Both the position numbers and the translations under genes were made by a program. This document shows positions 4,818-53,338 of a stretch of DNA of 64,000 nucleotides, in pieces. The DNA comes from Octopus vulgaris (lineage: Eukaryota): the NCBI GenBank assembly GCA_951406725.2, contig OX597828.1, positions 69,130,001 through 69,194,000 of the forward strand, given 5' to 3'. The number at the start of each line of letters is the position of its first letter. Within the stretch, counting starts at the first letter, position 1. The notes under the pieces were generated by a model. That model was not told where the DNA came from. It made no database searches and saw only the letters and a program-made list of their open reading frames with translations.

Positions 4818-4893
4818 GTCTTACAGCTGTTTCTAGGATAACCCAAATGATAGGTTAGCATGTCCATGCACTGGATATTCCATCATCAGAGAC
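4818..4893 (-). ncRNA. Type I hammerhead ribozyme motif in ULK3 intron 3 (sense to ULK3)
   Basis: Minus strand GTCT-CTGATGA-TGGAATA...TATCCTA-GAAAC AGCT GTA-AGAC. Stem I is GTCT/AGAC, stem III is palindromic and the triplet is GUA. Confidence 0.75.
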
Positions 4894-5966
4894 AAGGTAT
4901 ATTTTAGATGGGGAAAAATTTACAGCTTACAAGGCATAAAGTTCACAGTTTATAAGGAATAAAATAGAAGAATAAAGGAACAAATATAGAAGAATGAAGA
5001 GTAAAAGTAGTTCGAAGAATATAAGCAGGAGAATAATGTTCACAACTCATCTTTTTCCTGAGGATATAGATGTTGGTCAGTACTTCCATGAAGGTGCAGG
5101 TCTTGAGTTAAAATCCCAGGTAAAGTCGGGCAGTGTTTTGAAAGTATTCATATTGTAAATGTCTATACAGAAAGTATGATGGACATAAATGGGTTTTGTG
5201 AGTGGGTTTATGAGAGAGGGAGAAAGAGAGATCGGAGAAAGGAATAAAAAATAAGATAGTGGTAAAAGGGTAAAAAATAAGAATAAATATATGTATACAT
5301 ATATAACCACATGGTTCTGGGTTCAGTCCCACTGCCTGGCACCTTGAACAAGTGTCTTTTACTATAGCTTAGGGCCGACCAAAGCCTTGTGAGTGGATTT
5401 GGTAGATGGAAACTGAAAGAAGCCTGTCGTATATATATATATATATATATATATATATATATATGTATGTATGTGTGTGTATATGTTTGTGTGTCTATGT
5501 TTGTCCCCTCAACATTGCTTGACAACCAATGCTGGTGTGTTTACATCCCTGTAACTTAGCAGTTCGGCGAAAGAGACCGATAGAATAAGTACTAAGCTTA
5601 CAAAGAATAAGTCCTGGGGTCGATTGGCTCGACTAAAAGGCGGTGCTCCAGCATGGCAGCAGTCAAATGACTGAAACAAGTAAAATAGTAAAATAATATA
5701 TCATGTGACTGACCAGACTATCAGATGCTACAACACATCACTGGTCATAATGCATTTTGCATCGTTTTAGCCTTTGAATGATGCCACCCAGCTGGCTAGG
5801 TGAGCAAGCCAACATTAGCTGCAGACAGAAAGCAGAACTGGAGCAACATGAAATGAAGTGTTTTGCTCAAGAACACATGGCACTGTCCGATATATATATA
5901 TTCGCCATGATAGATTGCTAGCCACTAAACCTTTTTCTATTTTCTCTCCCTGTTTGTTTCTGTGTT

Positions 5967-6004
5967 CCTTTCTGTTGAAGAGCATAGACTCGAAACATAA
6001 AAGG
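5967..6004 (+). ncRNA. Degenerate minimal hammerhead-like motif
   Basis: CCTTT-CTGTTGA-AGAGCATAGACTC-GAAAC ATA-AAAGG. A6 is substituted and stem III is broken. Confidence 0.35.
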
Positions 6005-6569
6005 TTTTCTCACTTACTGAGCATTAAACTAATACATCTGTTTGTTGTTTACACACCTATCTTTGTCTTCTGTTCTTTTTGTAAATTCTCACTATCGGCC
6101 GCTTGTTCAACATGTGTCTTATCACCGAAAAGGTAATTATTTTTCCATGCTTGCTGATATTGTTTTTGTGTCTCTCTTTTTGTCTCAAAGCCGTAGGGTG
6201 TCTGTGTCATCCATGTTTTTAACCGTTACTGTCTCCAAAAAAGATTTTTCGTTTCATGTTCATCTCTGTTGCGTTGCATTCTTTCCTTCTGTGGCTGGCT
6301 GATTCAGAGCGGATCTCAGAATTAAACAGCCGAAATCTGCGATGAGGGATCAGTTTCTGACTGAAGAATGAAGGCTTTGAATGACCCGTTTGTCTTTTTG
6401 TTCGTCCGTTCGTGTATTTCATGTTATTTATTTATGTAAAGGTTTATTATATATATATATATATATATATATTTCTCTCACTGCCCCCACCTCTCTCTCT
6501 CACTGTCTCTCTCTGTGTTCAACCAAAAATATAAAATAAGGAGATAGAAAATAAAAATGAATGAATTAC

Positions 6570-6690
6570 CTATTTGTTGCAGGAACCGACGTACAACAAG
6601 TTCTGGTAAAGCTCTCTTCTTTCTCAAGAAGTGTGATAAATCTCCCCCAATGCAATACTCCATGATGAGATAAATGAATTTATCATCCCA
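6570..6690 (-). CDS. ULK3: ULK3-like kinase, coding exon 3
   Basis: CAG acceptor, then WDDKFIYLIMEYCIGGDLSHFLRKKRALPELVVRRFLQQI+G, then GTAATT donor. 121 nt, phase 0/1. Confidence 0.95.
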
Positions 6691-6812
6691 CTGAAACAAG
6701 AAAGCAATGATGATGAGGAAGATTGTGGTGGTAGCACAATCACAAGATTTTGATTTACAAACACCAGCCACACACATATTTATATATATATATATATATA
6801 TATATATTTATA

Positions 6813-51010: not shown

Positions 51011-51540
51011 ATTTATAGATATTTAATACATCACTACGCGCGTTTCCACAAATCACATGGCTTTAAAATCAAAGTTCATATCCTCGAGATGAGTATAGTA
51101 TAGTTCGTATTATCCGTTCAGGTGATACTGCTTTACTGGATTAATCACAGAAGGAGGTTTATCCCTTCTCGCCAGTATGAAGGCCAATCTAGCTATGTGG
51201 GTATTTGTGTATGTACTTGGCAGGTGGAAGTAGGTGGTGGGAGTAGAGGAAGGAATGGTATCCCTACATTGCTACCATTCCTTCCTCTACTCCCATCATC
51301 TACCTCCCCCTGCCAAGTACACATAGAAAGACCCACATAGCTAGGTTGCCCTTCATACTGGCGAGAAGGGATTAATCCATTAAAGCAGTATCACCTGATG
51401 AAATGAATCAATGATGATGATCAACCGATGCTTACGGATAATACTACGGACTATACTGTACTCATCTCAAGGATACGGACTTTCATGTTAAAGTCATGTG
51501 ATTTGTGGAAACGCGCGTAGCGATGTATTAAATATTTATA
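51011..51540. repeat. Fold-back element, about 250-bp arms with indels
   Basis: The arms meet at a loop around 51261-51272 (GGAAGGAATGGTA/TACCATTCCTTCC). It carries a hammerhead motif. Confidence 0.85.
51390..51524 (+). ncRNA. Type I hammerhead motif with long stem II in the 51.0-51.5 kb fold-back
   Basis: ATCAC-CTGATGA-AATGAATCA...TGATTTGTG-GAAAC GCGC GTA-GCGAT. The opposite arm keeps GTGAT, which gives a perfect stem I. Confidence 0.7.
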
Positions 51541-52471
51541 AAATCCATCTTAGACTTATTGTTATAATATATATATATGTATGTATATACACACACACAC
51601 ACACACACACACACACACACACACATATATATATATATATATATATATATATATATATATATATATATTCGCACACACTCGCTCTTATACACTTATAAAT
51701 ATAAAATATCAGCGCACAGCATTTCCAAAGAACAATACAACAGTGTGAACTGTTCGGCATTGGTTTAACTGCTTTAAATCAGGAAATATGGGTGCCAAAA
51801 TTTTGCAGTCACGTGTTGACCTATAACGAAACATGGACCTTCCAAAAGAGAGTGGCTAGACAAGGTCGAAAAGCCGAGTCGTATGTTGATGGCCTTGCAC
51901 TCACAAAACATCGTAGCCAAAGTTTGATGGACATATACCGGATTTCTATTTCAGGACAGGAAACAGGAAACGATAACAGCCCGGCCAATTTGTCATCCGA
52001 TCACTGGAAAATATTTACAATTGTCTCTCAAACAGCCTACTTTTTTTTTTTAACTGGAACAGTATTGTTTACTGAGAGTATTAGAATCTCACACTTCTTA
52101 TTGTATTTATGTATTGAAAATTGAATTACAAAATCCTGCAGTTTCTTCCAAACTCATTTGACGTTTCCCCAACACTTGATCATGTTTTCAAGCATTTTGT
52201 GCTTTTATCCCCAATAAAAGCTTCAATGATATGGAAGCCATAAATACTGCATTTACAAATTTTGTAAATGTGAAGCCTGAGAAATATTCTGAGAGATAGC
52301 ATGTCAAACAATTCACGTTGTTATTATATATCATCCTTCATTAGATTACTCTAAAATAACATCTCTTTTTAACAATCTTACGTACATCCACACAAACACG
52401 CACACACGTATGTATGCGTATATACATTTACATTTGGAACTCATGCTTCTTACCATATAGCCACGCCTTAT

Positions 52472-53042
52472 AATAAGCAAAAGGATATCCAGAGGTATTG
52501 CAGTACGATCCTTTCGTGCAACGCCATTTAATTGAACAATGCAATCATTACATCAATTTAAAATGTAGAGCAATCTTCAGCTGTACAAAGACATAGAATT
52601 TAATTAAATTTAGAACAGATGGACACATTAGTATAATTATACCTGAAATCTCCAAAAAGTTAAGGAGACAAACAAAGAACATGTTGTACCTACAACAGTA
52701 TGGTCGTAACTGTTGTAGATGCCACATGTTCTTTGTCTATCTCCTTAACGTCTTGGAGATTTTAGGTATAATTATACTAATGTGTCCATCTGTTCTAATT
52801 TAATTAAATTCTATGTCTTTGTGCAGCTGAAGATTGCTCTACATTTTAAATTGATGTAATGATTGCATTGTTCAATTAAATGGAGTTGCATGAAACAATC
52901 ATACTGCATAACCTCTGGATATCCTTGTTGCTTATTTTGATTTTAATCACCTTATTTTGAAATTGTATGGATTATACCGTACTAAATTCTGGTGCCTCAG
53001 CTTAAGTACCATATTCATCTGAATCTAAATTTTTGCTGAACT
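52472..53042. repeat. Fold-back Penelope-type terminal remnant with about 230-bp arms
   Basis: 52472-52699 is inverted at 52709-52936, with a hammerhead motif in each arm. Confidence 0.85.
52821..52909 (+). ncRNA. Type I hammerhead motif in the 52.47-52.94 kb fold-back (inverted copy at 52499-52586)
   Basis: GTGCAG-CTGAAGA-TTGC...GCAT-GAAAC AATC ATA-CTGCAT. The arms and the 6.9 kb copy give the consensus GAAAC GATC GTA CTGCAC. Confidence 0.65.
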
Positions 53043-53072
53043 CATCTACCATACCTAATATATATATATATA

Positions 53073-53338
53073 AATTCACAATCACTAAAAGTGACCAAGA
53101 GTGCAAAGGGCACCAGCATTGCTAGAAATCGGAGTCAAAGACCCCTTAGTCACAAAAAGTGTCATGTTCTATTTGAACTGACGGGGAGATAACAACTCTC
53201 CATCGAAAGCGAGATGTATTAGATTAACGTTTGTTCAACTAGCACATGCGCCTTTTAGTGGTTAAGGGTTTTTTGACTCCTATTTCTAGCAATACTAGTG
53301 CCCTTTGTACCCTTGGTCACTTTTAGACACGGTGAATT
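53073..53338. repeat. Imperfect fold-back element with a decayed hammerhead-like centre
   Basis: Arms CTAAAAGTGACCAAG.../...CTTGGTCACTTTTAG. The centre reads CTGACGG-GGAGA TAACAAC TCTCC-ATC-GAAA. Confidence 0.65.

Follow-up and report, generated by a model that had tools for sequence, protein, structure and literature searches.

Hammerhead ribozymes in Penelope-like elements (PLEs), their cleavage as dimers and cores with a U3-A8 pair have all been published. Cervera and de la Pena (2014; PMC4209133), whose coverage includes the molluscs Lottia and Crassostrea as well as a natural U3-A8 variant in Schistosoma, described hammerheads in the pseudo-LTRs (pLTRs) of many families as thousands of mostly single copies, some paired 100-700 bp apart on opposite strands, with an extra nucleotide after A9 and a palindromic stem III; the octopus motifs analysed here are alike in each of these respects. 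Lunse, Weinberg and Breaker (RNA Biol 14:1499), as cited in PMC6765202, reported PLE-linked variants that have a short palindromic stem III and cleave as dimers. Perreault et al. (2011; PMC3088659) found core variants to be rare, with U3-A8, U4C, a change at A6 and a U-U first stem II pair known and active, A6C slow and U4C reduced; their text has A6C and neither A6U nor G3-C8. An engineered C3G/G8C exchange partly restores cleavage in the Poseidon PLE of Anolis (Frangieh 2024; PMC11167929), and in this PLE, reconstituted in vitro, insertion is unaffected by ribozyme mutants and no RNA-seq reads end at the cleavage site. Why PLEs keep hammerheads is debated: cleavage is weak, insertion in vitro proceeds without it, and the ribozymes have been suggested to be mere parasites of PLEs. 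Non-LTR retrozymes (Cervera and de la Pena 2020, PMC7229834; bioRxiv 2026.07.22.740005) likewise have a type I hammerhead, lack an ORF and are related to PLEs, but they are tandem repeats of 170-400 nt with canonical loops, whereas the motifs of the window considered below are dispersed or inverted.

We analysed a 64,000-nucleotide stretch of the Octopus vulgaris genome (the window; contig OX597828.1), in which a preliminary description had placed hammerhead motifs of at least seven families at ten groups of sites. Each site was read and then searched against the genome, and family majority columns were built for families A-H and J. Nine of the ten site groups proved to be members of high-copy families whose majority columns show the type I layout of two core boxes and an NUH, with stems I and II (Table 1). 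The exception is the site at 53178, which we reject as a hammerhead: it has only five genome copies, its majority columns lack the second core box, and what had been read as 'stem II' is the midpoint of an inverted repeat of 128 nt. The plurality of families is borne out, with ten recognized in all, among them family K, whose relic at 17672-17731 had been missed. About 13 motifs in 64 kb, decayed copies included, agree with the earlier estimate of one per ~6 kb.

Table 1. Features of the 64-kb window, with the motif starts named in the preliminary description
Feature	Positions	Strand	Start named earlier	Remarks
Family A hammerhead	4818..4893	-	4818	C3-G8 core intact; single arm
Family F minimal hammerhead, A6U core	5967..6004	+	5967	Unit of ~200 nt (about 5900-6095)
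Family D fold-back	6908..7142	.	6943	Motif 6943-7031 on minus strand; right arm without first core box
Family J fold-back	7715..7984	.	7850	U3-A8 motif 7850-7886 (+), starting at the inversion centre, stem I shortened to 3 bp; minus-strand mirror arm
K-type PLE ORF fragment (thumb region)	13285..13716	-		No attached motif seen
Family K relic fold-back	17619..17748	.		Core lost in this copy; relic motif 17672-17731
Family B fold-back	17918..18237	.	17967, 18105	Motifs 17967-18049 (-) and 18105-18188 (+), both C3-G8
Family G unit, 213 nt	19341..19553	-	19486	Motif 19486-19536, G3-C8 core; window copy without G12
Family H hammerhead, U3-A8 core	44275..44320	-	44280	Adjoins (TA)n; one private core change in window copy
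Broken PLE ORF: RT, thumb, cysteine linker, GIY-YIG	47213..48927	+		Stops and frameshifts
Family C hammerhead, C3-G8	49037..49097	+	49036	~110 nt past PLE ORF (47213..48927), then (TA)n
Family E fold-back	51004..51550	.	51390	Motif 51390-51524 (+), stem II insert ~110 nt; left arm partial
Family D fold-back	52481..52926	.	52499, 52821	Motifs 52499-52585 (-) and 52822-52907 (+)
Low-copy fold-back	53073..53338	.	53178	Claimed motif rejected as hammerhead

The motifs exceed chance. A strict canonical descriptor matched the window twice, against means of 0.00-0.11 in 100 block-wise dinucleotide shuffles, of which 1 in 100 reached two matches at the loosest setting and none at the other three; most window copies carry private mutations and fail this descriptor. 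Folding of ten window copies separated only G (z -2.6) and J (z -2.8) from shuffled sequence, and the other eight did not beat it. Alignment across families was uninformative, at 32% column identity. An Rfam scan returned no hammerhead family among the best 150 of 153 window matches at E<=10; these matches are miRNA-like hairpin noise, and the Rfam hammerhead models describe canonical forms. The term 'minimal', used in the preliminary description, fits F and J only, because the other families have 4-8 nt palindromic stem III inserts and stem II inserts of up to about 110 nt, a combination that sets most octopus families apart from those in PMC4209133. With the insert left free across 1.49 Mb of the genome, a short palindromic stem III was still present in 21 of 23 matches. 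Extrapolation from a random-stretch sample gives about 65,000-95,000 intact-looking motifs genome-wide, compared with the 2,000-9,000 per genome reported in PMC4209133.

The motif lies downstream of a PLE-type RT/GIY-YIG ORF in some copies of eight of the ten families (B, C, D, E, F, G, H and K), which upholds the Penelope-type origin first proposed and links all families except A and J to an autonomous element; for these two, no coding parent was seen in the loci examined. At 8 loci, a family B motif follows a PLE ORF match by about 280-850 nt; linkage to a PLE ORF was seen at 7-8 loci for C, 18 for K and 1 for E. Same-strand upstream ORF matches were found for D at L093 and L108 and for F at L158 and L179, so that linkage comes from one locus in E and from two each in D and F. 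Family H forms the end of an RT-GIY-YIG frame of 736 aa that has an inverted, truncated copy on its upstream side, family K is the 3' end of the youngest PLE found, and family G ends a thumb/linker/GIY-YIG frame at L458 and L459, longer relatives of which carry full RT motifs. A further locus, L457, was rejected as a tandem coding G element: it is without a PLE ORF and looks like a local duplication. Of the traits that mark the Neptune or Nematis clade, the cysteine linker before GIY-YIG was compared: the G and H parents have C-X3-4-CxxC as defined in Craig 2021, and K and C have another cysteine linker. Pfam did not recognize the PLE fragments of the window, and the GIY-YIG Pfam scores of the PLE ORFs lie below cut-off.

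Across families, 3' ends are fixed and 5' ends scattered, matching the structure published for truncated PLE insertions (Craig 2021), and inverted partners occur at 6-18 of 30 loci per family. Insertions show 5' truncation, an inverted copy at the 5' side, an optional tail and tandem copies, with 3' ends outward. Since the motifs lie downstream of PLE ORFs in eight of ten families, most units without an ORF are to be read as the 3' ends of autonomous PLEs, truncated, frequently inverted and inserted at (TA)n. The (TA)n setting had been correctly described; the inverted-repeat setting is less general, as 5 of the 11 insertions are single-arm (A, F, G, H and C).

Reading the families by their majority columns also changed the status of several sites. 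Those at 5967 and 44280, described as decayed, represent families F and H with variant cores, and those at 7850 and 19486, taken as ordinary, are variants too (J, U3-A8; G, G3-C8). Exact patterns matched the genome 5,837 times for the G3-C8 core of G, 7,309 for the A6U core of F, 1,396 and 2,191 for the U3-A8 cores of H and J, and 4,240 for K, whose youngest PLE carries U4C; the reversed-pattern control gave 0 in every case. The window copies of A, B and C have C3-G8.

Covariation at positions 3 and 8 was assessed blind, with both positions left free, in 78 random 10-kb stretches (780 kb). Apart from one TA-repeat artefact among 27 matches (shuffle mean 0.5), all 26 carry a Watson-Crick 3-8 pair: 21 C-G, 4 U-A and 1 G-C. 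When stem III was freed as well (1.49 Mb), 3-8 was paired in 20 of 23 matches, of which 18 were also palindromic (shuffles 0.2) and 2 were not (shuffles 0.4); the three unpaired, palindromic matches (shuffles 0.6) were single ones, C-A twice and C-U once, which may be either decayed copies or families. Neither random-genome sample contained an A3-U8 family. The pair is present in 96 of 100 listed copies of family G, counted by eye, and in 100 of 100 of family H. The core varies only at positions 3/8, where every family keeps a pair, and at 4, 6, 7 and 17. Invariant U4 and A6 are kept in families other than F and K: F has U6 in about nine-tenths of its listed copies, with U, C or A tolerated there, and young K has C4 in about nine-tenths, older K subfamilies having U4. 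Family F admits all four letters at position 7, while G5, A9, G12-A14, the 15.1-16.1 pair and non-G17 stay fixed. All four double changes seen at 3/8 (G, H, J and L300) re-establish pairing between two positions that pair in the active fold alone. Natural compensatory swaps of this kind are evidence from evolution for the importance of catalysis, or at the least of the active fold. A looser G3-C8 pattern proved too noisy (32,944 matches against 18,756 in the control); it showed a second repeated sequence, a putative hammerhead.

Given how the families are built, their linkage to ORFs, 3' ends that are fixed and 5' ends that vary, the outward orientation and the few core positions that change, we consider it probable that the motifs are pLTR hammerheads of at least ten PLE families, present as short, mostly decayed 3'-end insertions at (TA)n, with cores likely under selection in the parents and not in the copies. 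An RT-GIY-YIG protein would bind its parent PLE RNA, the endonuclease would nick AT-rich DNA, and reverse transcription would begin at one of two internal sites past the ribozyme. Two such sites would give the two 3'-end clusters of family G, about 60 nt apart, which resemble the pair of initiation sites that defines the PLE tail in Poseidon (PMC11167929); AT-rich targets and a protein-assisted hammerhead are further likenesses to that element. Copying would mostly halt early and leave a unit of 150-300 nt, at whose 5' side another truncated copy would often be added in inverse orientation, so that both 3' ends would face outward. In the parent RNA, ribozyme cleavage would be weak and would rely on dimers joined by the palindromic stem III, on help from the PLE protein, or on both. 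The self-cutting fold was likely kept by selection in parent elements, judging from the altered cores of several families with thousands of copies, a natural swap of the key base pair among them; F and K could instead be relaxing, because A6U and U4C are expected to lower activity.

Other origins of the short units were weighed against this truncation of PLE 3' ends. That the fold-backs are MITEs of DNA transposons with motifs by chance, as their short, ORF-less, inverted form at TA and the silence of the Rfam matches might suggest, is extremely improbable: arm lengths and centres differ between copies, single-arm copies are common, the ends are the 3' ends of RT-GIY-YIG elements, and shuffles yield almost no motifs. 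It is refuted for B, C, E, G, H and K, and it may hold for the 53073-53338 element. The preliminary description had instead favoured a non-autonomous, retrozyme-like pool, a view that does not survive as stated in the face of coding copies in eight of ten families and of fixed 3' with variable 5' ends. A narrower form, in which part of the families would be genuinely non-autonomous, retrozyme- or SINE-like ribozyme elements, transcribed as short units and spread by PLE proteins, strikes us as unlikely. It would account for the mostly short units, preferred 5' edges and several subfamilies of G and F (two in G3-C8) and for the lack of a coding parent of A and J in the loci seen; animal retrozymes are, moreover, reported as derived from PLE pLTRs (bioRxiv 2026.07.22.740005), and L288, elsewhere in the octopus genome, fits their layout as a 359-nt tandem array with a canonical hammerhead in each repeat. 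No window motif, however, sits in a tandem array, and in fold-back copies the core is predicted to be buried by the copy itself, with a mean unpaired probability of 0.00-0.22 as against 0.51-0.82 for the same four single arms.

Within the truncation model, the short units may be run-off cDNAs of the 5' pLTR, from the internal tail site to the transcription start, which would refine the early halt in copying and make the sharp 5' edge of family G a transcription start site. We offer this as a possibility on the doubtful side. Among 73 copies of family G, agreement is 56-82% as far as a point some 17 nt before stem I and only about 30-50% further upstream, public contigs end at the same edge, and only 958 matches extend into the parent, against 5,837 core matches. 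Of 11 position-picked copies that reach the edge without running on into the parent, read by eye, 9 have G before the edge in place of the parental C, as expected of a copied cap. About five of these nine could be templated by the inverted arm, however, and in the pooled 73-copy set, chosen in part for resemblance to the window copy, the commonest letter is C (31%). Either of two further features could turn the edge into a hot spot of truncation: the parent 3' UTR becomes microsatellite-like just upstream, and the edge is able to pair with the first 3' end. The ribozymes might be catalytically irrelevant passengers whose cores drifted and reached high copy number with successful PLE lineages, or their fold only a signal for protein binding or initiation, a reading encouraged by U4C in the youngest PLE found where older K subfamilies have U4, by the latitude of F at position 6, by the dispensability of cleavage in the one PLE reconstituted in vitro (Frangieh 2024, PMC11167929) and by the PLE clades that thrive without a hammerhead (Craig 2021). 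The re-pairing in all four 3/8 double changes, and the fixed core of F around a freely varying position 7, make this quite improbable.

A broader proposal, plausible but tentative, is that G3-C8 is here natural and family-wide for the first time, with more than 5,800 copies, two subfamilies and a coding parent, beside U3-A8, A6U and U4C; that, with three of the four possible 3-8 pairs in one genome, PLE lineages select an active fold tuned to be slow; and that the short units, as cDNAs running from start site to tail, mark the position of the PLE promoter. In Poseidon, by contrast, G3-C8 is a laboratory rescue mutant (PMC11167929). Our search for natural G3-C8 or A6U met only the engineered G3-C8 and a mention of A6U in a twister paper, to which Lunse 2017, Hammann 2012, figures and the bioRxiv supplements may add more. 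G3-C8, A6U and U4C are likewise absent from the parts of PMC4209133 covered here, and no cephalopod term occurs in its supplements searched. We found no literature report combining hammerhead, Penelope and octopus, and the main text of a 2026 octopus repeat annotation contains neither 'ribozyme' nor 'hammerhead'.

Canonical-core descriptors overlook whole families of this kind, and PLE fold-backs are liable to be mis-annotated as MITEs or unknown repeats. Young coding PLEs whose cores are canonical, U3-A8, G3-C8, A6U or U4C are available side by side in the octopus genome as a ready panel. We also noted that the family A copy in the window is intronic and lies in sense orientation within a minus-strand kinase gene.

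The window (G000:C15:69130001-69194000) comes from an assembly whose repeats point to an octopod cephalopod. Searching this 2.8-Gb assembly (227 contigs) with each claimed site upheld the dispersed hammerheads of the preliminary description everywhere except at 53178. First-look candidates ranged from 314 to 2,960 across nine families and numbered 5 for 53178. Majority columns of the loci kept (25–30 per family; 5 for 53178) formed a type I hammerhead in families A–H and J. Most window copies carry private damage, 8 of the 10 tested folded no better than shuffled sequences, and an Rfam scan of the window gave no hammerhead among the best 150 of 153 matches. 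A strict canonical descriptor recognized two copies in the window, compared with no more than 0.11 in shuffled sequence. A tenth family, K, is represented in the window by a relic. The hammerhead reading of 53178 was rejected because its relatives lack the second core box and the site lies where the two halves of a 128-nt inverted repeat meet. The low-copy fold-back there (53073–53338), which has no hammerhead, is possibly an old MITE.

Features of the window and of genomic loci outside it (L-numbers)
Feature	Location	Strand	Remark
Protein kinase gene	57-26805	-	exons about 26805, 8190, 6666, 1500, 57
Mariner transposase HTH fragment	12367-12789	+	
Family K relic	17672-17731		relic of hammerhead family
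Long inverted-repeat elements	22685-23379; 28842-30198		
Intronless frameshifted ORFs	34062-35241	+	
Broken RT-linker-GIY-YIG ORF	47213-48927		family C hammerhead downstream, within window
Tandem array	L288:2307-4513 (G000:C1:20.00 Mb)		359-nt unit, canonical-looking type I hammerhead in each
Microsatellite-like sequence	L456:3400-4700; L458; L459		over 1 kb, inside 3′ UTR of G and H parent elements

The excess over shuffled sequence extends to the genome: in a random sample of 78 position-picked 10-kb stretches, the strict descriptor gave 27 matches versus a shuffle mean of 0.5. One match is a TA-repeat artefact, and the other 26 represent about 18 insertions, with one array supplying 7. Extrapolation puts the number of intact-looking motifs at roughly 65,000–95,000, with a wide sampling error. 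When all loci were clustered, 12 clusters had more than one member and about a dozen singletons were credible. Exact-pattern counts, which are lower bounds, were 7,309 for F, 5,837 for G, 4,240 for K, 2,191 for J and 1,396 for H (reversed-pattern controls, zero). The L288 tandem array, with five hammerheads on one strand and two inverted, reads as retrozyme-like with an inversion in the style of Penelope-like elements (PLEs).

With positions 3 and 8 left free, these were paired in all 26 non-artefact random matches. When stem III was freed as well, 18 of 23 matches were both paired and palindromic, 3 were unpaired at 3–8 and 2 lacked the palindrome. According to the review PMC8495972, the 3–8 pair keeps the general acid in place in the active fold, and G8C alone slows the reaction about 100,000-fold, with partial rescue by C3G; the accessible part of Frangieh 2024 (PMC11167929) reports the same partial rescue in a PLE hammerhead. 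Family G has G3–C8 in 96 of the first 100 matches listed (positions 3 and 8 free), spanning two loop-2 subfamilies, and in contigs from four public runs, which carry two organism labels, no alternative letter was listed at ≥10% across its core. U3–A8 occurs in all 100 matches listed for family H; family J has a majority of U3, with A8 in 99 of 100 listed. A type I hammerhead of canonical size whose loop 2 is classical (L300:8152) also has a U3–A8 core, making three cases, a count of cases and not of independent origins. In family F, about nine in ten copies have U at position 6, position 7 takes all four letters, position 17 is A or U, and positions 3, 4, 8 and 9 are nearly fixed. Young K copies have C4 and older subfamilies U4; the young type also has an extra base before G12. 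U4C and A6U would indicate relaxed as much as tuned catalysis. A repeated sequence with a different insert (L373–L377 and other loci) fits a loose G3–C8 pattern and is a candidate hammerhead only.

Within a family, copies end at a common 3′ position 30–140 nt beyond the motif and start at varying 5′ positions. An inverted neighbour flanks 6–18 of 30 loci in most families, 16 of 25 in H and 25 of 25 in J (retrieved by searching with the inversion centre); these counts, which include a few unrelated hairpins, are upper bounds. Each of the window's five core-bearing fold-backs has outward-facing 3′ ends, toward (TA)n.

PLE ORF ends precede family B in 8 loci, E in 1 and K in 18, and same-strand ORF matches lie upstream of D and of F in two loci each. 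The family H hammerhead terminates a 736-aa RT-GIY-YIG frame, upstream of which lies a truncated copy in inverted orientation. In 2 of 3 fetched loci, a thumb-linker-GIY-YIG frame and then a long microsatellite-rich UTR end in family G, and database relatives of this parent have full RT motifs. Among the loci seen, no coding PLE ORF lay upstream of A or J. Family K belongs to a young PLE family whose open frames reach 717 aa; it occurs in tandem and inverted pairs and was likely active recently. The links in B, C, D, E, F, G, H and K argue against the separate pool of non-autonomous ribozyme elements proposed in the preliminary description. Since the insertion structure matches that given for PLEs in the available text of Craig 2021, the short units are mostly truncated PLE ends rather than a separate element class. 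Given their microsatellite-like 3′ UTRs, the G and H parents may spread simple repeats and mask links to short copies. Many identical-scoring copies of the K-bearing PLE occur at L286–L287 and about 150 listed loci.

Insertion likely proceeds by nicking of AT-rich DNA, after which copying of the parent RNA would start at internal sites lying 3′ of the ribozyme, as the accessible part of Frangieh 2024 (PMC11167929) shows for an Anolis PLE; the two clusters of family G 3′ ends, about 60 nt apart, fit such internal initiation. Premature termination and insertion of a second copy in inverted orientation would then yield single-arm and fold-back units. The 5′ edge of family G is sharp, 17 nt before stem I, and only 958 matches cross it. 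Copying through to the end of the RNA at a transcription start would account for this edge, and 9 G letters in 11 G-family junctions, counted by eye, fit a copied cap, but a pooled alignment of G copies does not confirm a G letter at the edge; a hot spot for truncation is no less plausible.

Selection on the core would operate in parent transcripts, where cleavage, by analogy with published assays, is expected to be weak and either dimeric or protein-assisted. The same part of Frangieh 2024 (PMC11167929) describes insertion in vitro as independent of cleavage and reports no cleaved ends in Anolis RNA-seq. Genomic copies are probably inert, because fold-back arms are predicted to pair with each other across the core, and a kinase intron tolerates a family A copy with an intact core in sense orientation.

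Published text (including PMC4209133 and PMC6765202) already describes PLE hammerheads that number in the thousands, pairs on opposite strands, cleavage as dimers and U3–A8, and natural U4C and A6C are known as rare variants (Perreault 2011, PMC3088659). Within the article text that it covered, our literature search returned no report of PLE hammerheads in cephalopods and no natural G3–C8 or A6U hammerhead. The hammerheads are real and of a known kind; the family-wide core variants may be new.

The motifs to the left of 26.8 kb fall among the exons of the kinase gene, which we take to resemble ULK3, and are therefore intronic. Its introns hold five PLE ends, either fold-back or single, and the fold-backs would form long dsRNA in pre-mRNA and possibly serve as A-to-I editing substrates. 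The intronless ORFs, which have no Pfam match, presumably resemble an asteroid/XPG-type nuclease.
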